Source: Thermoanaerobaculia bacterium (GTDB lineage: Bacteria > Acidobacteriota > Thermoanaerobaculia > Multivoradales > Multivoraceae). From it: 64,000 nucleotides of DNA. Of this stretch, positions 2,899 through 60,856 are shown piece after piece. Made by a program: the position numbers and the translations under genes. The stretch spans positions 3,936,001-4,000,000 of the forward strand of contig OY761158.1 of NCBI GenBank assembly GCA_963664405.1, in the 5' to 3' direction. Under the pieces are notes generated by a model that searched no databases, had not been told where the DNA came from, and saw only the letters and a list, made by a program, of their open reading frames with translations. Numbering within the stretch: the stretch's first letter is position 1; every line of letters begins with the position of its first letter.

Positions 2899-4638
2899 TT
2901 GCTCTATCCGGATCCGGCCCTTTATTACCCGTTCGAAGACGGAGACACAGCGGACTGGATCGCAAACGGGCTGTTTCTCGCCGGCTACGACGTTCGCTGT
3001 TCGGCGCGTCCTCCGCTCTTCCCCTTCCTGATCGCCGTTCTCTACCGGGCAGGGCTATTGGGGGTCCTTGCGGCGCTGGTGCAGCTGGCGACTCATCTGA
3101 CCACGCTGGGGCTTTACTTCACACTGGCGCGGCGTCACGGACGAGCGGTGGGAGGGATGGTCGCCGCCTGGTTTCTTCTCGGTAGTGACTGGCAGCGACT
3201 CTCCTTCACCTTAATGGCGGATGTGCCGGCCTCGTGTCTGCTGGCTTGGGCGTTGCTCGCTTGGCTAGCGCCGGAGGGAGCGCCGAGATACGTTCTCGCC
3301 GGCTTCTTCGCAGGTCTCTCGGCGGTTACCCAGCCGGTCGCCCTTCTTTTCGCTCTCCCGGCGGCGGGCGTCGTCATCGCCTTCGATCGTAGTCATCTGC
3401 GCTCTCCGCGTCTGTGGATAGGCGCGGCCCTCTTCGTCGCTCCCGCGCTCGCATGGCGGCTCTACCGCTCGATCGCCCTCGGTTTTAGTGGCGACGTTCT
3501 AACCCGGCATTGGAGCCTCATCGAGCTCCATGGCGACGCTCTTGGCTTCTATCTGTGGAGCTTCCTCGCCTTGGTCGGCATCCCCGCCGCCCTACTCGCT
3601 GTCTCGGGTCTCTGGTCACTACTGCGCCGCATGCGCCAAGATCCCGCCGCAGCTCTCATCGTTGGCGCCCTGGCCAGCATTCTCGTCTTCTTCATCTTCC
3701 TCTACGGTTTCGCGAGCGTTCGCTTTCTGAGCTACGTCGTTCCGTTGACCGCACTTTGTATGGGCGAGAGTTTGAGCCGGGCCGGGAGACGATGTCGCTG
3801 GCTGTTTGGGATGGCCGCGATCTTGTTCGTCGCCTGTCCGACTCCGGGTTCGATCGCCGACGCACATCGGGTGAGTCTGTGGCCTGCGCCCATGATCTGG
3901 GCGGAGGCTGGACCCGGTCGGGGGCCCTCGGGAGCCGTCGGCTTGCAGTCTGTGTCGCTGGTCACCAATCCTCGACTACCCTGGGAGGTCTCGAACTATG
4001 CCCTGCTCGAGCGGACGTGGCGAAAGGAGCGGCCCACCCGGGAGTTCGATCCTTCTCTCGTAGGGGGGGACCGCTCCGCTCTCCTCTTCTACAGCACTCT
4101 CGAGGAGGCACCGGCCCGCTCTCAAGCGATCCCGCTCGGCAATCTGTTGCACAAACAGGTCGGGTATCTTCCCGCCTCCGTCGCTGCGGCCCTGTCTCCG
4201 TTGGTCGAGCTCGAGTCAGTCGGGGGGCTTGCGGAGCACGTCCTCTACCGAGCGCGAGTTGCAGATGTTGATGACAGATGGATTTTCGCCGCTCGTGCTG
4301 GCAGTGTTTCGGCAGCGAGCTTGAGGCGGCGGGCACTGGATGAGACGCCGGCGGCGACTATCGCGGGCGACGATCTGGCTGTTGCCGAAGCGCTCGCCAG
4401 CGCCCTCGAGGGACGTCACATCGTCATCTATGCGAGCACGCGCGGCCTCCACATCTGGCAAGCGCTAGTGCCACTTCTGCTACGCCGAACTCCGGAGGTG
4501 GTGGTAGTGGAGCCCGAGCGCGCGTCGGACATCAAGCGGACTCTTGGGTCCGGCAAGCCGATGGGTGAGATCGCTGGCGTGCCGCTCGCCGAACATCGGC
4601 TCTTCGACTGGGATTGGGTGGTGCTGGGCGAGAGGTGA
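2899..4638 (+). CDS. Multi-pass membrane glycosyltransferase-like protein (GT-C/PMT-like); start uncertain
   Basis: RPPLFPFL loop, many hydrophobic segments, RFLSYVVP; frame is open further upstream. Confidence 0.65.
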   Translation: MLYPDPALYYPFEDGDTADWIANGLFLAGYDVRCSARPPLFPFLIAVLYRAGLLGVLAALVQLATHLTTLGLYFTLARRHGRAVGGMVAAWFLLGSDWQRLSFTLMADVPASCLLAWALLAWLAPEGAPRYVLAGFFAGLSAVTQPVALLFALPAAGVVIAFDRSHLRSPRLWIGAALFVAPALAWRLYRSIALGFSGDVLTRHWSLIELHGDALGFYLWSFLALVGIPAALLAVSGLWSLLRRMRQDPAAALIVGALASILVFFIFLYGFASVRFLSYVVPLTALCMGESLSRAGRRCRWLFGMAAILFVACPTPGSIADAHRVSLWPAPMIWAEAGPGRGPSGAVGLQSVSLVTNPRLPWEVSNYALLERTWRKERPTREFDPSLVGGDRSALLFYSTLEEAPARSQAIPLGNLLHKQVGYLPASVAAALSPLVELESVGGLAEHVLYRARVADVDDRWIFAARAGSVSAASLRRRALDETPAATIAGDDLAVAEALASALEGRHIVIYASTRGLHIWQALVPLLLRRTPEVVVVEPERASDIKRTLGSGKPMGEIAGVPLAEHRLFDWDWVVLGER

Positions 4639-4960
4639 TCGCATCAACGTGAGCGCATTCTGACCTCCTCTCGCTTGACCGCGTCCCGTAAACCTGGACC
4701 GGTTTTGGGGCGCCCGGGAGCCTTGACGTGCGACAACGGCACGGAATTCAACTCTCTCGGGCTTCGACTCCTGGGCTGGGAGGTGTGATGTCAGCGACCC
4801 CAGGCAGCCTTCGGCTGCTGCTTGGGTGCCAGCCGAAAATTTGGGGACGCGATGCGGACACCCGGCCGTCACCTGTTCGGGTGGCGCCTGGCTCGCGAAG
4901 ACGAGCCGAAGACGAGCCGGGCCTGCTAGCGGCTGTCATCTTGGACCAGTATTCGGCTAG

Positions 4961-6514
4961 GAGTCTGCGCGGCAGGAGTGCGGGTACGGTGAAGCTTCGA
5001 TCGCGCTGCAGAATGGACGCCGCATTGGGTTTCGGATGGCGGAGAGTGCGTTGAGCAAGCCTGACGAGGCGTCAGGAAGCGCGATGCGGGTCGTATAGTG
5101 AGCTCTAACTCGGTGGCATGGCCCGGAGCGGCTCATGAAGCCGCTTGGAGGACGTGGAAGCGCTTCAAGTTGACGGCCAGACACACCAGATCCCACTCGT
5201 GGCCGACATTGTCTTGGCCCCGGAGGCTGAATCGTCGGAAGCCCAGCACCTCTTTGATCCACCCGATCACCGGTTCCACGACCGCCTTGCGCCGTCGGTA
5301 GCGTTGCTTGCCGGCCTCGCTGGCGAGTTTGATCTGCATGCGGTGAGACGCTTCGAGCTGCGTACTCACTTCCCACTTCTTTCCCTCTCGACCCAAGGAG
5401 ATGTGAGCGTCAATGCTTCGCTCCTCGAGTTCGAGGAATGTCGCCTCGCTGCGATACCCCGCGTCCGCCAAGACCTGCTCGGGATCCTCCCCCAGCGCCG
5501 CCTTCGCCCGGGAGAGCAACGGCATCATCTGGTCCACGTCCGCGGCGTTGTTCGTCAGGCTCGTCGAGACGATCATCTGCGACTCTTCCTCCACCGCCAA
5601 CTGGCCGTTGTAGCACTGATCGTAGCCATGGACCGTTTTCATGATCCGACTCTGCGGATCGGTGAAGTTGTCTTGGGCCCGGTCCTCCGGAACACCGAAA
5701 TCGCGCGCGAAGGGGCGTCCGCGACGAGGCGGATCGTCGTCGTCATCCTCCGTACGGCCGCGCGCGCGGTCCTTCTCGGCCTGGCGCGCCTCGAGGCGCG
5801 CCTTCGCCTCCTGGATCTTCGCCAAGCGCTGCTCGCGCCGTTGCAGCTCGGCCGGCAGCTCATCGCCGCGCAGCTGCGCTCCATGCTCGGCATCCTCAGC
5901 CGTATCCACCGCCTCGGCCTGCGCCATCAGCGCGGCGATCTCCTCCTCCAGACGCTTCTCCTCCTCCAGCATTCGACCGTAGCTCATCGACTTGCGCTTG
6001 CTCGCGTTGGCCTTGACCTTCGTACCGTCCACCACCAACGTCCCCAGACGCAACACCCCGGCCTCACGCGCGATCTGCACCACCTGCACGAACAGTGCGT
6101 GGAAGGCCGCCAAATGAAGCTGACGAAACTCACAAATCGTGCGATGCGCCGGAGAGTTGCCCGCCGCCAGAAAACGATAGGCCACGTCCTCCTCGAGCTT
6201 GCGCGCGATGCCACGCGACGAATACGTCCCCGTCGCATACGCATACAGCAAAACCTTCACCATCATCCGAGGATCGAACGGCTGATTCCGACGACCATCC
6301 CCCTCGTAACGAGCGTAGAACGACGACAGATCCAGCGCCTCCACCGTCTCGGAGATGAAGTACACCAAGTGACCCTCCGGCAACCAGTCACGAGGGCTCG
6401 GAGCTAACAGATACAGCTGATCCGGGGCATACGGACGAAATGACGTTGGCATGCCACAACTCTACTCCGTCTTCGATCTCTTCACTAAACACTCCGTTTC
6501 TGCCGCGCAGACTC
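4961..6514 (-). mobile_element. IS1182-family insertion sequence
   Basis: Perfect 15-bp TIR GAGTCTGCGCGGCAG (4961-4975 / 6500-6514); CTAG duplicated on both flanks. Confidence 0.95.
5133..6452 (-). CDS. IS1182-family transposase
   Basis: DWLPEGHL, PRMMVKVLLYAY, SSRGIA, VDGTKVKANASK, LADAGY, RRKAVVEPV. Confidence 0.95.
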   Translation of the reverse strand: MPTSFRPYAPDQLYLLAPSPRDWLPEGHLVYFISETVEALDLSSFYARYEGDGRRNQPFDPRMMVKVLLYAYATGTYSSRGIARKLEEDVAYRFLAAGNSPAHRTICEFRQLHLAAFHALFVQVVQIAREAGVLRLGTLVVDGTKVKANASKRKSMSYGRMLEEEKRLEEEIAALMAQAEAVDTAEDAEHGAQLRGDELPAELQRREQRLAKIQEAKARLEARQAEKDRARGRTEDDDDDPPRRGRPFARDFGVPEDRAQDNFTDPQSRIMKTVHGYDQCYNGQLAVEEESQMIVSTSLTNNAADVDQMMPLLSRAKAALGEDPEQVLADAGYRSEATFLELEERSIDAHISLGREGKKWEVSTQLEASHRMQIKLASEAGKQRYRRRKAVVEPVIGWIKEVLGFRRFSLRGQDNVGHEWDLVCLAVNLKRFHVLQAAS

Positions 6515-7030
6515 CTAGTCGCCCACAATCTCCCAGACCTCCACGGTCAGGCCGGGAGGTTCATCATCATGCGAGGGTTGGAGCATGCCCCGAACGCGAA
6601 TCTTCTGGCCGAGCTCTTCGACGCTCGCTGCCAGGTCGTCGAAGTGTTCTCCACCACTCAGGACGAGCCCCTTCGGCTCATGAGCTAGTTCGAGGACAAG
6701 GAAATCCCCATCTTGGGACACCGGCCCAACCGCTGTGACTTCGATGTCCACTGCGGTGAATCCAGCATCCCGCACTTCTTTTCGAATTCTCTCTGGGTGG
6801 AAGCCGGTGCCCACCTTTGCTACGACCACGGCGGTTGCCGATGCGAAATCAACCTCGGCACGTTCGACGCCGTCCAGGCGTCGCAGGGCCCGTTCGGCCC
6901 CTCGCGCTCAGAGGGGTCACGTCAGGCCGTCGATTCCGAGCTCCGCTCGCTCGACCTGCGCCACGGCTGCCATTGCGGCCATGAGCCACAGCAGCAGTAC
7001 CGCCGATAGGACGCGTTTCGAATTGGTCAT
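6515..7030 (-). CDS. Secreted heavy-metal-associated (HMA) domain selenoprotein with UxxU motif, 171 aa
   Basis: RBS GAGAGG + ATG at 7030; signal peptide; ELGIDGLT-U-P-L-U-ARGAERALRRLDGVERAEVDF...IRKEVRDAGF; in-frame TGA at 6919-6917 and 6910-6908 occupy both Cys positions of GMTCxxC. Confidence 0.85.
6864..6916 (-). promoter_or_regulatory. Candidate bacterial SECIS hairpin(s) downstream of the two UGA codons
   Basis: Perfect stem CGACGCC-UGGAC-GGCGUCG (loop ~32 nt after 2nd UGA); weaker AGGGGCC-GAAC-GGGCCCU (loop ~22 nt after 1st UGA). Confidence 0.55.
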
Positions 7031-7057
7031 TGCGCCTCTCCCTTGTCCACTGTCATT

Positions 7058-7933
7058 CTAGAAAAGCCATCGTACGCCCAAGATGGCACTGACCTTGGGC
7101 TCTGGTTGAATTCCGTTCAAGTCGACGAAGACTGGAACCGGCAGCGAAAGCTCGAGCACGAACCGTCGCGAGAGCAGCAACTCGATTCCCGGCGAAACGT
7201 ATAGGACCGTTCCTCCGGAGTCCGACAAGGTTACACCGGCGACCTCCGAGCGAGCGACGGATTCCCCGTTCAGCTCGAGCACCGCCAGCGTCATCGGCTC
7301 TCCGGGCCCTTCGCGCGGGAAGACCCGGCGCAGGTACGCAAGATCGAAGCGAAATCGATCACCGGATCGAAGGCCGTCGTCATCCTCTCCACGCCGTGTG
7401 AACTGCACGTCGGAGACGATCCAGTCTGGATCGCGAATGTGCGAGAAGACGAGTCCCGCAATCACATCGGTAGAGCCCCTGCCGAAAGTACCGCCCGTGG
7501 GCAGCTTGAGGCCGATCTCGGGCGCGAGGCGCGTCGAACCCGCCCGTACGTTCCGACGCAGCACGTCGTAGCGGGCGAAGATCGTGCTGTCCGCCGTGCC
7601 GCTGCTGACTGTTCGCGCGCCTGAACCGTCCGGGTCGTTCCGCTCTAGCCGCACCAGCGGTGTCACCAGACTGAGACTGAGGTGAGGGCGCGCTCCCCAC
7701 ACAACAGCGTTGATACTGCGCCATCGCTCGAGGTGTTCATCCGGGCGCGGCTCTTCGAAAGCGTCGTACCGGACCAGCGATCGTACGAGAACTCCCCGGT
7801 TGAAGAGAGTGCGCCCCGAGGGCGCCACGATTTGCGCGCTCGCGAGCGCAGCGGGCGCGAGAACCAGGGCGGTCCCTACGGTGCACTTCAGCCACATGAC
7901 CGATGAACCTACGTACCGATCACGGTTTGTCAT
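7058..7933 (-). CDS. Putative outer-membrane beta-barrel transporter (MetA-pathway/phenol-degradation-like)
   Basis: Signal peptide, GTADSTIFARY, GLKLPTG, LYVSPG, C-terminal ILGVRWLF; ATG overlaps MerR stop. Confidence 0.7.
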   Translation of the reverse strand: MTNRDRYVGSSVMWLKCTVGTALVLAPAALASAQIVAPSGRTLFNRGVLVRSLVRYDAFEEPRPDEHLERWRSINAVVWGARPHLSLSLVTPLVRLERNDPDGSGARTVSSGTADSTIFARYDVLRRNVRAGSTRLAPEIGLKLPTGGTFGRGSTDVIAGLVFSHIRDPDWIVSDVQFTRRGEDDDGLRSGDRFRFDLAYLRRVFPREGPGEPMTLAVLELNGESVARSEVAGVTLSDSGGTVLYVSPGIELLLSRRFVLELSLPVPVFVDLNGIQPEPKVSAILGVRWLF

Positions 7934-8342
7934 GGCCACAGGATTGTGTGCCGTCGAGTGCGGCCAGAATCGCGCACTGCGACACGGGAGCCTCGCCATT
8001 ACATTTGGCGGTCAGTCGCTCTAGAAGACGGCGCATTTCCCTGAGCTCTACCAACCGGAGGTCGATCTCTGCGATGCGTGCCTCGGCGACAGCTTTCACC
8101 GAGCCGGCGTTCTGTCTGGAAGCGCGCAGCTCGAGAAGCTCCTTGATCTCGCTAAGCGAGAATCCGACTGCTTTCGCCCGGCGGATGAATCGCAGGCGCG
8201 ACACCGCTTCGGGGGGATACTGACGGTAGCCGGAGGAACTGCGAGGGGGCTCATCCAAGAGGCCCGTCTTTTCATAAAAACGCACGGTTTCCACACCGAC
8301 GTCTCCGGCGCGTGCGAGCTTGCCTATTGTGAGTCGCTGCAT
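7920..8342 (-). CDS. MerR-family metal-responsive regulator (CueR-like)
   Basis: TIGKLA...VETVRFYE.GLL, GYRQY, GFSLSEI; C-x8-C metal loop (CNGEAPVSQC) and SCGH tail; GGAGG RBS. Confidence 0.92.
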   Translation of the reverse strand: MQRLTIGKLARAGDVGVETVRFYEKTGLLDEPPRSSSGYRQYPPEAVSRLRFIRRAKAVGFSLSEIKELLELRASRQNAGSVKAVAEARIAEIDLRLVELREMRRLLERLTAKCNGEAPVSQCAILAALDGTQSCGHDKP

Positions 8343-8359
8343 CGACACCTCCAGATGAG

Positions 8360-8391
8360 AGCCTAAACCCTGGAGACAGGTACGGAGTCAA
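8360..8391 (-). promoter_or_regulatory. MerR-type long-spacer promoter/operator
   Basis: TTGACT-20 bp (CCGTACCTGTCTCCAGGGTT)-TAGGCT with imperfect dyad in the spacer. Confidence 0.8.
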
Positions 8392-8487: not shown

Positions 8488-8536
8488 TGGTGGAGCCGAA
8501 GGGAATCGAACCCTCGACCTCTTGAATGCCATTCAA
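8488..8536 (-). mobile_element. att site: duplicated 3' 49 bp of tRNA-Ala(GGC), distal boundary of island B
   Basis: Identical to 54927-54975. Confidence 0.93.
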
Positions 8537-8776
8537 CCATGGGGGCGTTTGGCTGAGTTCTACGAGTGAGGCTCAGTTGCTCTGAGTCAGTAAGTACAGG
8601 GACTTACGGCTGCGTGCTCCTCGGATGAGCCAGTCGGAGTTGAGGCAGTTTGGCTGAGTTGATGAGCAGGAGGTGAGCAGCTCGTCGGGTAGGGGACCAG
8701 CGACGGCTTCAGATCGGTGCCATCCTGGAGCGGGCTCCCGCAGAGGTCGAAACGACGCCGGTGCTGAGAGGTCAGG

Positions 8777-8957
8777 TGTCGCACCTTCGCACATATTGCG
8801 ACAAACTGTCGTCTTTCGCCCCTGGGCCAACACGACAGTCCAACGTCTACGGGCCTTTCCGAGCATCGGTGGCGTCTTATGTGGTGGACTACGACACCAC
8901 GGATCGAGCTCTGGGCCGCTGATCCCAACGGGCGACGGGTAAGATGTGGCCAAGTCA
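8777..8957 (+). repeat. Box-site A (boxes at 8777-8803, 8807-8837, 8870-8896, plus downstream promoter-like module)
   Basis: TGTCG...CGACA boxes followed by GATCGAGCT...CTGATCC...GGTAAGATG. Confidence 0.75.
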
Positions 8958-11654
8958 ATGGTTCTAGAAGCTGGCACTCTCCTCGGCCACTACGAAGTGG
9001 TTTCCTCGCTTGGCGCGGGAGGCATGGGAGAGGTCTACCGAGCCAAGGACACGAAGCTCGGACGGGAGGTGGCGATCAAACTCCTGCTCGACGAGGTGTC
9101 CTCTGATCCGCAGCGTCTCGCTCGCTTCGAGCGCGAGGCGCGGGTCCTGGCTTCGCTGAATCACAACAACATAGCCACGCTCTACGGCTTCGAGAAGGAA
9201 GGCGACACCAGCTTCCTGGTCATGGAGCTGGTCGAGGGGGAAACGCTGGCAGAGCGCATCCAGCGCGGTGCGATGCCGATCGACGAGGCGCTGCCGCTCT
9301 TCTTGCAGATCGCCGAGGGGCTTGAGGCTGCTCACGAGAAGGGCGTCATCCACCGCGACCTGAAGCCGGCGAACATCAAGATCACCGACGACCGCCAGGT
9401 GAAGATCCTCGACTTCGGATTGGCTAAGGCCATGGCTCCGGTGGTCGATGCTAGCGATCCGACGATGTCGCAGTCCCCGACACTGACCCTCGCCGCGACC
9501 CGACGTGGCGAGATTCTCGGCACCGCCGCCTACATGAGTCCGGAGCAGGCGGCCGGTAAGACACTCGATAGGCGCACCGATGTCTGGGCCTTTGGTTGCT
9601 GCCTCTTCGAGGCGCTTTCGGGACATCGAGCCTTCGAGGCCGACACCGCTCCGCAGACGGTGGCCAAAGTCCTGGAAAGGGAGCCTCTATGGGAGGCGCT
9701 ACCGCCTACAGTTCCGTCCCCGGTCGAGCGCCTTCTTCGCCGGTGTCTGCGCAAGGATCTTCGGCAGCGCCTGCACGCCATCGCGGATGCCCGGATCGAG
9801 ATCGAGGAGACGTTCAGCGGCTCGGAGGGGCAGGGGTTTGCTGCGCAACCGGCGGGAGGCCTTCGGCTTCGCAAACTGGCCAGTTGGCTCGCAATAACGG
9901 CCGCCCTCGCGTTGGGCACTGGCGCATATCTCGCCAAGAGGTTCTGGGAGACAGCGCCGGCTGTGGAGAGGCCGCCATTAATCCAGTTCTCCCTGGAAGA
10001 GGTGCTCGACCCCGGTCTCGGGCTCTCGATAGACGAGGTCGATCGACCCTCCATCGCGTTCTCATCCGACGGTCAGCATGTCGTCTTTGTGGCGAAATCG
10101 GAGGACGGGATCCGGCGCCTCCACTTGCGCAAACTCGACGAGGTGCGCGGCAGCGAGCTCCCCGGAACGGAGGGCGCCACGACAGCCTTCTTTTCACCGA
10201 ACGGCCAGTGGATCGGCTTCTTTCAGAGGTGGAAGCTGAAGAAGTTGCCGATCGCCGGGGGGACGCCCCGTACCGTCAGCTCAGGGGGCATGTACGGGGC
10301 GAGCTGGGGGCCGGATGACACGATCGTCTTTCCTATCATCGACGTATCCGGCCTTTCGATCGTCTCGGCTCAAGGAGGAACGCCCGAGGTCCTGACGGTT
10401 GTCGATCGGGAAGCAGGCGAGTTCAGTCACCGGTGGCCCCAGTTCCTTCCTGGTGGCCAAGCGATCCTCCTAACTGTGGGCCGTTCCGGGAACTGGGATG
10501 AAGCCGCCATCGCAGTCCATTCTCTAGACACCGGCGAGCGTCACATCGTCATCGAAGGGGGCACACATGCACGCTACTCGCCCACCGGACACATCGTCTA
10601 TGGCCGTGGCGGTCGTTTATGGGCGGTTCCTTTCGACCTCGCTAGCCTCGAAGTGAACGGCCCCTCGGAGCTCCTACTCGAAGGTGTGGCCCAGAGCGGC
10701 TCGAACGGAATGGCCCAGTTCGCTCTGTCTGGTCACGGTTCCCTCGTCTACGCCCCCGGTACGGTGTACACACCAAACCTGCGACTGATCTGGGTCGACC
10801 GACAGGGGAACGCCGAGCCCCTGCCTGCTCCGCCTGGTCGCTATTTTCATCCTCGGCTCTCGCCGGACGGGCGTTCGATCGCCCTTGGCATCGATGACGT
10901 ACCGCCACATATCTGGCTCTACGACATCGCCCAGCAGATGAAGCCGAAGCGGTTCACCTTCGAGTCCTACAACCGCTTTCCTATCTGGACCCCCGATGGA
11001 GTCCACGTGACCTGGGCTTCACCACGAGGTGAGAATCTGCCGGACATCTGGTGGAAAGCAGCGAATGGAGGCGGTGGCTCAGATCAACTCACTCGGAGCC
11101 GGGAGGCCGTTCAAGTTCCCCTCGATTGGGCGCGCAACGGCCAGGTGCTCCTCTTGGACTCGAAGGGCGCTGCCGGAGAGCAAGACATCTGGTCTCTGTC
11201 GCTCGGTGAGGATCCAGCGGTCCAGCCCTTCGTCGCCACTGACGCACTCGAGACCAACGCCACGTTCTCCCCGGATGGCCTCTGGGTGGCGTATCAATCG
11301 GACGAGTCGGGAAGCTACGAGATTTACGTCCAGCCGTATCCCGGTCCGGGAGGAAAGATGCAGGTCTCGAGCGAAGGCGGCAAAAGCCCCGTCTGGTCTC
11401 GCGACGGAAGCGAGATCTTCTTCCGATCCGGAGAGCGGATGATGACTGTTGAGCTCCTATCCTTTGAGCCACTGCCACAGCTAGGAAGACCCAGGGAGCT
11501 GTTTCGTGGGATCTTCTCCGGAGGCTTCGCCTATTTTCGCGGCTACGACGTCTCCGCGGACGGCCAGCGCTTTCTCATGGCACAGCATGCAGATACGGCT
11601 CCGGAGCCCAAGCCGTTGATCGTGGTGATCAACTGGCCCGAGCTACTCGAATGA
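8958..11654 (+). CDS. Hanks-type Ser/Thr protein kinase with TM helix and TolB/PD40 beta-propeller
   Basis: LGAGGMGEVY, VAIK, HRDLKPAN, DFG, GTAAYMSPE; repeated FSPDG motifs. Confidence 0.95.
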   Translation: MVLEAGTLLGHYEVVSSLGAGGMGEVYRAKDTKLGREVAIKLLLDEVSSDPQRLARFEREARVLASLNHNNIATLYGFEKEGDTSFLVMELVEGETLAERIQRGAMPIDEALPLFLQIAEGLEAAHEKGVIHRDLKPANIKITDDRQVKILDFGLAKAMAPVVDASDPTMSQSPTLTLAATRRGEILGTAAYMSPEQAAGKTLDRRTDVWAFGCCLFEALSGHRAFEADTAPQTVAKVLEREPLWEALPPTVPSPVERLLRRCLRKDLRQRLHAIADARIEIEETFSGSEGQGFAAQPAGGLRLRKLASWLAITAALALGTGAYLAKRFWETAPAVERPPLIQFSLEEVLDPGLGLSIDEVDRPSIAFSSDGQHVVFVAKSEDGIRRLHLRKLDEVRGSELPGTEGATTAFFSPNGQWIGFFQRWKLKKLPIAGGTPRTVSSGGMYGASWGPDDTIVFPIIDVSGLSIVSAQGGTPEVLTVVDREAGEFSHRWPQFLPGGQAILLTVGRSGNWDEAAIAVHSLDTGERHIVIEGGTHARYSPTGHIVYGRGGRLWAVPFDLASLEVNGPSELLLEGVAQSGSNGMAQFALSGHGSLVYAPGTVYTPNLRLIWVDRQGNAEPLPAPPGRYFHPRLSPDGRSIALGIDDVPPHIWLYDIAQQMKPKRFTFESYNRFPIWTPDGVHVTWASPRGENLPDIWWKAANGGGGSDQLTRSREAVQVPLDWARNGQVLLLDSKGAAGEQDIWSLSLGEDPAVQPFVATDALETNATFSPDGLWVAYQSDESGSYEIYVQPYPGPGGKMQVSSEGGKSPVWSRDGSEIFFRSGERMMTVELLSFEPLPQLGRPRELFRGIFSGGFAYFRGYDVSADGQRFLMAQHADTAPEPKPLIVVINWPELLE

Positions 11655-60756: not shown

Positions 60757-60856
60757 GGAAGCGCTCGGGGGCTGGTGCCTCCCGCGGTCTTCAAAACCGT
60801 AGTTCGGCTCTGGTTTCAGGGTCGAGGGTGGGTTCGATTCCCATGCGCTTCCGCCA
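60757..60856 (+). tRNA. selC: tRNA-Sec (UCA)
   Basis: 8-bp acceptor GGAAGCGC/GCGCTTCC, 6-bp D stem with TGGT loop, CTTCAAA anticodon loop, long variable arm, 5-bp T stem, GCCA end; TACAAT upstream. Confidence 0.95.

Follow-up and report, generated by a model that had tools for sequence, protein, structure and literature searches.

An exported HMA-OB protein gene with two in-frame UGA codons at its metal-ligand positions, and its outer-membrane barrel partner, in a Thermoanaerobaculia bacterium

The locus and its product

The stretch of DNA analysed here, called the window in what follows, comprises 64,000 nucleotides of a Thermoanaerobaculia bacterium of the phylum Acidobacteriota (GenBank assembly GCA_963664405.1, contig OY761158.1, positions 3,936,001 to 4,000,000). 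At 6515..7030 its minus strand holds an open reading frame (ORF), the subject of this report, that runs from an ATG (7030-7028) to a TAG (6517-6515) and is open apart from two TGA codons, at 6919-6917 and 6910-6908. Translated with TGA as selenocysteine (Sec, U), it gives a protein of 171 residues that reads ...IDGLT-U-P-L-U-ARGAERALRRLDGV... around the motif U38-P-L-U41. A Shine-Dalgarno-like sequence, GGGAGAGG (7035..7042, minus strand), can be read directly 4 nt 5' of the ATG, and the stop codon of an upstream gene for an outer-membrane-type protein lies at 7058, just 27 nt before the same ATG. Residues 1-24 (MTNSKRVLSAVLLLWLMAAMAAVA, followed by QVE; 6959..7030, minus strand) form a signal peptide, modelled as a helix at residues 4-20, whose cleavage site would be set by an A-x-A pattern; a hydrophobic N-terminus is common to every member of the family described below.

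Automatic annotation misses most of this gene. Under translation table 11 only a C-terminal piece of 104 residues (6829..6515) is listed, and a large protein collection likewise holds nothing but the 104-residue call (P0002). A word-based protein search at E<=1e-5 returned only four proteins, namely this stub, two unnamed entries and one named CopZ by JGI; such a search is blind to the family because its genes are miscalled. A first-pass annotation, made from the letters of the DNA, had proposed that the frame extends beyond the 104-residue ORF to the ATG at 7030 with its ribosome-binding site, that a signal peptide precedes IDGLT-U-P-L-U, and that both TGAs occupy the Cys positions of a CxxC-type HMA motif. 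The sequence and its TGA=U translation bear out the first two proposals, and the Pfam match and the alignment columns given below bear out the third. The ORF at 7030..6515 is a genuine gene for an HMA protein, predicted to be exported, with two UGA codons at ligand-Cys positions.

Residues 33-91 (6758..6934, minus strand) match the Pfam HMA family PF00403 with an E-value of 5.6e-10 and 39.9 bits, against a cut-off of 24.8. AlphaFold2 (AF2), run on an alignment of 28 family members (A1), gave a model with a mean predicted local distance difference test score (pLDDT) of 92.4 in which the signal helix is followed by an HMA domain of the order beta-alpha-beta-beta-alpha-beta and then by a beta domain at the C-terminus (residues 92-168). 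The strands cover residues 25-34, 55-61 and 66-71, with a further one starting at 92, the helices cover 39-50 and 81-88, and U38 and U41 stand at the start of helix 1. The first domain retrieved HMA structures in Foldseek, among them 3dxs, MerP (1osd) and CopZ (6ff2), with target-side template-modelling (TM) scores (TMt) of ~0.8-0.89. A Pfam score above threshold is joined by the expected fold, with the ligand pair at the junction of loop 1 and helix 1, and the protein belongs to the HMA group. The C-terminal domain (6527..6757, minus strand) is OB-fold-like, as judged from the strands of the model and from Foldseek matches to Stn1 (4joi), to the N-terminal regions of AspRS and LysRS, and to an OBody (4gla). 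In the translations of most relatives of the same subfamily this domain carries the sequence L-H-P-S-H-x-x-x-P-P-G-L-T-V-E, and the window protein has Q-P-S-H at that place. The first-pass annotation was right in calling the product an HMA metal-binding protein, which Pfam, AF2 and Foldseek all support, and overlooked both the OB-fold domain and the conserved outer-membrane partner gene.

Evidence for selenocysteine

Homologs were sought by six-frame searches of 61 relatives and of 401 genomes of the phylum. Eighty of the 401 matched at E<=1e-6 (a tally that includes genome G108), and in the table of that search the match contains two in-frame TGAs in 21 genomes, the window's own included. Among 36 loci that were extracted, 14 encode a UxxU form, two a UxxC form (UAVC), two a CxxU form (CGFU) and 14 a CxxC protein of the same build; the remaining four are unrelated HMA proteins or gave no hit. 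Across the 28 rows of alignment A1, in which identity to the window protein is 26-44%, the sole invariant columns are C38 and C41, the positions of the first TGA (Sec38, 6917..6919, minus strand) and of the second (Sec41, 6908..6910, minus strand). In-frame UGA codons thus align with Cys in homologs and the protein is conserved on both sides of them, as expected of a selenoprotein gene. Interchange of Cys and Sec at both positions had been put forward in the first-pass annotation as a check on its reading, and the UxxU, UxxC, CxxU and CxxC forms all occur.

The host genome (6.78 Mb, one contig) encodes SelB, SelA and SelD, which exceed their curated cut-offs with 339.8, 423.1 and 362.1 bits respectively and answer a second check named at the outset. 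A gene for tRNA-Sec with the anticodon TCA, already placed in the window by the first-pass annotation, is found by both ARAGORN and Rfam (RF01852, 72.4 bits against 47) at 60757..60856 on the plus strand. The best selD match of the genome (388007-388930, plus strand, of the contig G000:C1) itself contains one in-frame TGA, and the SelD of this host is probably a selenoprotein too; a second selD-like gene, with no TGA, lies at 565727-566650 of the same contig.

Sequencing runs of four studies agree on the two codons. Contigs of runs X1 and X4, from two studies, are identical over the selenoprotein gene, and contigs of X7 and X8, from two other studies, hold a variant that is ~2% diverged. Over 6515-8360 it differs by 40 substitutions and one insertion, all of them outside 6908-6919, and both TGAs are retained. 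The question whether reads would show TGC or TGT in their place, also raised in the first-pass annotation, is thus settled in favour of TGA in the contigs of four runs from four studies.

A genome-wide code in which TGA is a sense codon was considered and rejected: many homolog frames end at a TGA just past the aligned C-terminus, taken as their stop, and an alternative genetic code is also countered by the long ORFs of the window, which are intact under table 11. Taken as a whole, the sequence data suggest that both UGAs are read as selenocysteine.

A tandem hairpin element downstream of the UGA codons

The 76 nt that start just before the first UGA (UGA1) fold as two adjacent hairpins on the minus strand, with a minimum free energy (MFE) of -36.3 kcal/mol and a z-score of -2.26; five of 200 shuffles were as good. 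The first hairpin (HP1, GGGGCC-GAACG-GGCCCU, 6885..6901) begins 15 nt past UGA1, or 6 nt past the second UGA (UGA2), and the second (HP2, CGACGCC-UGGAC-GGCGUCG, 6865..6883) starts 24 nt after UGA2. It is the conservation of these hairpins across genes, and not the folding of a single sequence, that sets them apart from chance. In an alignment of 14 UxxU genes found by protein similarity (A2), standard pairs occupy 91.8% of the cells, against 33-48% when the partners are slid by one to three columns. Both-sided changes are seen in 6 of 13 pairs (4 of the 6 in HP1), and the covariation score was reached by none of 500 column shuffles. Since kinship among sequences can inflate such shuffle counts, a control was added in which the same columns were compared between UxxU and CxxC genes. 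The UxxU genes (n=14) form on average 5.14 of the 6 pairs of HP1 and 6.79 of the 7 pairs of HP2, against 3.64 and 2.36 in the CxxC genes (n=14) and 3.5 and 1.5 in the UxxC genes (n=2).

The core of HP2, CGCC-NGGNN-GGCG, is invariant in UxxU genes. A CxxC homolog (L045) that encodes the identical peptide R-L-D-G-V pairs at merely 4 of 7 HP2 positions, and variants that encode R-Q-A-G-V retain HP2 with a different loop; for these two reasons HP2 must be constrained at the level of the RNA and not by the peptide alone. The larger set of 105 UxxU genes found with a DNA pattern (see below) behaves in the same way: the MFE of the HP1 segment is -10.59 kcal/mol against -4.79 in shuffled sequences, compared with -3.68 against -3.99 kcal/mol in 16 chance matches of the pattern. 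The outer pair of HP2, which the search pattern leaves free, covaries in these 105 genes (GC 43, AU 34, CG 12, GU 8).

Conserved stem-loops thus stand just 3' of the UGA codons, as they do in bacterial selenoprotein genes. The first-pass annotation had noted hairpins at a distance typical of a selenocysteine insertion sequence (SECIS); they prove to be two, with covariation, nearly universal in UxxU genes and absent from the corresponding columns of CxxC homologs. Going by the distances, HP1 is the most likely partner of UGA1, and HP2 that of UGA2; in keeping with this assignment, the single-Sec forms have, by eye, one hairpin 12-13 nt after their own UGA.

Distribution of the family

The invariant columns of alignment A2 were turned into a DNA pattern, TGA-N6-TGA-N22-T-N4-CGCC-N-GG-NN-GGCGT, which matches the window once and none of 100 shuffles of it. 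Scanned against one genome per GTDB species, it matched at least 120 loci. Of 121 matches listed, 105 are HMA UxxU ORFs and the other 16 are chance matches; the counts given here for pattern-found genes all refer to the matches listed. The 105 ORFs have a hydrophobic or lipoprotein-like N-terminus, then G-x-x-U-x-x-U, then 63-541 residues (~130 in the sorted list), a length that, judged from the translations, corresponds to the HMA domain plus a second domain. The taxon labels of the matches are those of Acidobacteriota (many orders), Planctomycetota, Methylomirabilota, Nitrospiraceae (Nitrospirota), Verrucomicrobiia, Armatimonadota, Gemmatimonadota, Desulfobulbia, Tectomicrobia and others.

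Two unusual members deserve mention. The genome that carries the window has a second copy of the motif region (G000:C1:3336459-3336593, plus strand, corresponding to about 3004-3123 of locus L034), which reads ...SRIDGLT-U-P-L-U-ARGAERSLRRLDGVESAEIDF..., is 80% identical over 40 residues and keeps both TGAs together with sequence resembling HP1 and HP2. This copy has no signal peptide and diverges after ~45 residues; runs X1 and X4 contain it on a further contig, and it looks like a gene remnant. In a genome labelled Vicinamibacterales (G442, loci L040/L102), the UxxU HMA-OB frame continues without a stop into a region of ~400 residues with a weak match to BNR_2, and this extended frame may be either a fusion or the result of a missed stop.

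Neighbouring genes

Upstream of the selenoprotein gene, at 7058..7897 on the minus strand, lies a gene of the same operon for a protein of 279 residues, ending ...RWLF, that has a signal peptide and is modelled by AF2 (pLDDT 88) as an outer-membrane beta-barrel with, on our reading of the model, 12 strands. Foldseek places this barrel next to the FapF structures 5o67 and 5o65 and to 4rl8_C (TMq 0.71, TMt 0.74), with TM-scores of 0.67-0.74 in all. It matched no Pfam family even at E<=10, PF13557 included, and no NCBIfam model; in the ESM Atlas 85% of the members of the nearest cluster carry PF13557, and a homolog of the barrel (at locus L122) has a weak match to that family (E 3.1e-6). A barrel homolog adjoins the HMA gene in most loci that came from the protein searches, and lies within 2.5 kb of it in 57 of 104 pattern-found loci. 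The association depends on the subfamily: it holds for 18 of 19 listed loci of the window's own UPLU subfamily, for all nine UPIU loci, for eight of nine UGLU loci and for all three USLU loci, and for one of 11 UNFU loci and none of six UATU loci. This gene neighbourhood suggests that the barrel may bind the HMA-OB protein physically.

The first gene of the cassette (7920..8348, minus strand) encodes a MerR-family regulator (Pfam MerR_1, MerR-DNA-bind and MerR), with the helix-turn-helix, the dimerisation helix and the C-terminal Cys pair of that family. Its C116 and C125 fall, in alignments, on the loop cysteines of MerR (5crl), CadR (6jgv) and a PbrR-like protein (5gpe), and CueR (1q05) is also listed among its matches. 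The third Cys of the 5crl, 6jgv and 5gpe chains is missing and aligns with N80/A81, a pattern that we take to be typical of monovalent-ion sensors of the MerR family and that we regard as a lead only.

The same order of MerR, barrel and HMA genes is found at one further locus (L116). At related loci the genes nearby encode, among others, CDF efflux pumps, zf_CopZ, a MerT-HMA fusion, and a MerA-like flavoprotein oxidoreductase accompanied by a CsoR-like repressor; among 78 neighbour ORFs scanned at these loci, no Dsb- or thioredoxin-type partner was seen. In addition, a gene for an NHL-repeat six-bladed beta-propeller (~320-580 residues) stands beside the UxxU gene in 8 of 14 UPLU loci examined (L067, L078, L102, L111, L120, L127, L132 and L154), in several of them between the UxxU and barrel genes. 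This propeller, which has no counterpart in the window cassette, is a probable third component of the module.

On its other side the selenoprotein gene abuts an IS1182-family insertion sequence (4954..6521, minus strand) whose transposase is encoded at 6452..5133 (NCBIfam transpos_IS1182, 363.6 bits) and which has inverted repeats of 22 nt at its two ends (4954-4975 and 6500-6521). The element is inserted exactly at a palindromic CTAG that contains the TAG stop of the selenoprotein gene. Contigs of X7 and X8 represent the IS-free allele, with the sequence left of 4954 joined directly to 6515, and for this reason the insertion can be taken as strain-specific and the end of the ORF as unaltered by it.

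Two further features flank the cassette. About 140 nt upstream of merR lies a fragment resembling the 3' end of transfer-messenger RNA (8488-8538, minus strand; ...GGTTCGATTCCC...CTCCACCA), which scores 23.6 bits for the Rfam tmRNA family, below the gathering score, and matches the 3' end of the genome's genuine ssrA gene, ~570 kb away, at 27 of 33 nt. An island that targets ssrA may have carried the cassette here and left this fragment behind as a remnant of its attachment site. At 8946-11654 on the plus strand, a 902-residue protein with a Ser/Thr protein kinase domain fused to PD40/TolB-like beta-propeller repeats is encoded next to the cassette, with no evident link to it.

Relation to known proteins

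The first-pass annotation had presented the UxxU motif as rare, with SelL as the classic case. UxxU HMA selenoproteins are, however, already on record, in the NCBIfam model NF041115 ('UxxU_metal_bind') and in two reviews; NCBIfam also has NF045683 ('MerT_CopZ_Se'). NF041115 describes an HMA-type domain in which both ligand Cys are replaced by Sec, a substitution that the window protein shares. Among NCBIfam models, NF041115 ranks second for this protein, with 40.7 bits for residues 24-72 aligned to profile positions 1-49. Measured against a curated cut-off of 95 bits the shortfall is large, and the protein does not belong to that equivalog. The cut-off was reached by none of 28 family members and by none of the 105 pattern-found UxxU genes: 25 of these were scanned with a top score of 52.8 bits, and scans of the other 80 gave nothing at E<=1e-16. 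The model has 74 positions and a single domain, whereas the window protein runs to 171 residues, with an OB fold as its second domain and a conserved partner in the outer membrane. The window protein would act like the catalogued UxxU HMA proteins but stands outside their equivalog, within a larger two-domain family for which no model was found.

MerP (TIGR02052; 1osd, 1afi) shares with the window protein a signal peptide, the HMA fold (TMt 0.77-0.82) with a loop of the GMTCxxC type and a periplasmic location, predicted for the window protein. The window protein reaches 34.9 bits where this model requires 92.55, uses Sec at both Cys positions and carries the additional OB domain, and its gene has the barrel, MerR and IS1182 genes as neighbours instead of merT and merA (a comparison confined to the cassette); it falls outside the MerP family. 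The CopZ/Atx1 chaperones and the N-terminal HMA domains of P1B ATPases (NF047957; 3dxs, 6ff2, 2qif) have the same ligand geometry. They give the highest-scoring sequence match, at 44.8 bits still short of the cut-off of 85, and the best fold matches; unlike the window protein, proteins of the CopZ/Atx1 type are cytoplasmic and Cys-based and have no OB domain. With SelL the likeness is limited to the spacing of the motif, two Sec two residues apart. SelL is a eukaryotic protein with a thioredoxin-like fold, and its SECIS lies in the 3' untranslated region.

The partner barrel (7897..7058) shares its predicted 12 strands with the COG4313 channel (4rl8) and the FapF amyloid secretion channel (5o65/5o67), at TM-scores of 0.67-0.74 and an identity of 12-15% to the solved chains. 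We know of no link of COG4313 or FapF channels to metals or to HMA proteins.

In the literature searched (supplements may hold more), neither an HMA-OB selenoprotein nor the association of one with an outer-membrane channel was found to be described. The terms 'UxxU' and 'mercuric reductase' are absent from the main text of the cited Zhang & Gladyshev (2007); the candidate of that paper might belong to the HMA-OB family. The preprint of Haft (2022) mentions neither HMA nor CopZ.

Alternative explanations

The least favourable view of the locus is that it is a pseudogene, or that its TGAs are errors of sequencing or assembly, with a product reduced to a 37-residue peptide or to a GTG-initiated piece of 104 residues. 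The short automatic call would fit such a view, as would the insertion sequence that abuts the gene and the truncated copy of the motif region elsewhere in the genome. Against this, both TGAs occupy the same codons in 14 of the 36 extracted loci and in the 105 further genes of several phyla, the protein is conserved on both sides of them, half an HMA domain or an OB piece alone would not fold as modelled, and the IS insertion leaves the stop codon and the C-terminus unchanged. The TGAs recur in the contigs of four runs from four studies; since two of these runs are identical and two hold a diverged variant with the TGAs unchanged, we consider both readings excluded for practical purposes, with a vanishingly small probability left to them. 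The remark of the first-pass annotation that two independent nonsense mutations at exactly these codons are unlikely is in line with the conservation data, which contradict a pseudogene. In the main rival reading, the UxxU pair would be a diselenide/selenol redox centre, of a periplasmic oxidoreductase or a redox sensor, with the HMA fold as a mere scaffold. According to the tables of the reviews, most of the bacterial selenoproteins catalogued with UxxU or UxxC motifs are thiol/selenol oxidoreductases. Periplasmic conditions are oxidising and readily yield a diselenide, and the operon has no metal transporter. The fold is nevertheless that of HMA proteins and not thioredoxin-like, a homolog of MerR-family metal sensors heads the cassette, related loci carry MerT-HMA, MerA-like, CsoR-like, CDF and zf_CopZ genes, and the scan of 78 neighbour ORFs was devoid of Dsb- or thioredoxin-type partners. 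This context appears to favour a metal role over a diselenide redox switch, which we find improbable.

A third possibility accepts the selenoprotein and makes it a dedicated mercury protein, an analogue of MerP that would feed Hg(II) to a MerT/MerA pair encoded elsewhere and not to the channel partner. Selenolates bind Hg(II) extremely tightly. MerP is among the best NCBIfam matches (34.9 bits) and its structure 1osd among the fold matches, and a MerT-HMA fusion and a MerA-like enzyme occur at one related locus each. But the MerP score is far below the cut-off and MerP has no OB domain, the cassette contains neither merT nor merA, the regulator does not have the third Cys of the MerR, CadR and PbrR-like chains to which it was aligned, and the conserved partner, in 18 of 19 listed UPLU loci, is an outer-membrane barrel and not MerT. 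We therefore hold a dedicated mercury protein to be rather unlikely, though well within reach.

The reading preferred here, an intact selenoprotein gene whose product is a periplasmic HMA-OB binder of soft metals with an outer-membrane channel partner, under MerR control, must also face evidence that tells against it. The literature search found no experimental selenium incorporation or metal binding for any family member. selA above the cut-off is missing in 2 of 17 Sec-form genomes (G140, 99% complete, and G366, 96%); it is present in the other 15 and also in 11 of 12 CxxC-only genomes, so that the presence of the Sec machinery does not discriminate Sec from Cys genomes. HP2 overlaps the conserved peptide R-L-[DE]-G-V, and part of its conservation could be at the protein level. 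The spacing of the hairpins is uneven (15 nt from UGA1 to HP1, 24 nt from UGA2 to HP2, with UGAs 6 nt apart), and an Rfam scan of 6400-7100 at E<=10 detected no SECIS family, just two chance snoRNA rows. The regulator scores 105-124 bits for the NCBIfam models of ZntR, MerR, CueR and CadR, all below their cut-offs and about equal for the Zn, Hg, Cu and Cd/Pb models. Finally, no merT, merA or P-type ATPase gene stands beside the gene in the window. With these points counted in, the preferred reading is very probably correct, and the core of the first-pass annotation, a double-Sec HMA protein, is upheld by the Cys/Sec interchange, the hairpins, the sel genes and the TGAs of several runs.

A possible mechanism and its implications

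In the mechanism that we propose, a soft metal would induce the cassette through the adjacent MerR-type regulator. The hairpins would recruit SelB carrying Sec-tRNA, both UGAs would be decoded as Sec, and the signal peptide would export the product to the periplasm, where soft-metal capture is its presumed function. There the two selenolates of the HMA domain could chelate a soft metal, either Hg(II) or one of Cu(I), Ag(I) and Au(I). The C-terminal domain, of OB-fold type, might then provide docking or pass the ion on; the likeliest recipient is the 12-strand outer-membrane channel encoded in the same operon, and this contact with the barrel would serve export or controlled passage. A bolder version sees the HMA-OB protein and the FapF/COG4313-like barrel as parts of an envelope pathway, not described before and dependent on selenium, that would capture a soft metal or organometal in the periplasm and pass it through the outer membrane. 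The pathway would be present in at least six phyla, and each of the tandem hairpins would recode one UGA. We offer it tentatively, as possible but doubtful; if true, the tandem hairpin element would be a natural model for the action of bacterial SelB at closely spaced UGAs.

Nothing established is overturned by these findings, UxxU HMA proteins having been catalogued before. What we take to be new is the HMA-OB architecture with its outer-membrane partner and tandem hairpin element, widespread and unannotated. Gene callers cut the HMA-OB selenoprotein at codon 38, and at least 105 double-Sec genes are as a result largely invisible to annotation. The family provides all four Cys/Sec combinations on one scaffold, together with a strongly conserved and searchable RNA element, and makes two questions directly testable: why a metal site should use Sec and not Cys, and how the cell decodes two UGAs with a spacing of 6 nt. 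Its members come from soil, groundwater and marine phyla. For Hg, Cu, Ag and Au, a pair of selenolates should be a far tighter ligand than thiolates, and HMA-OB proteins could thus matter for the cycling of metals, possibly of mercury, in Acidobacteriota, Planctomycetota and Methylomirabilota.

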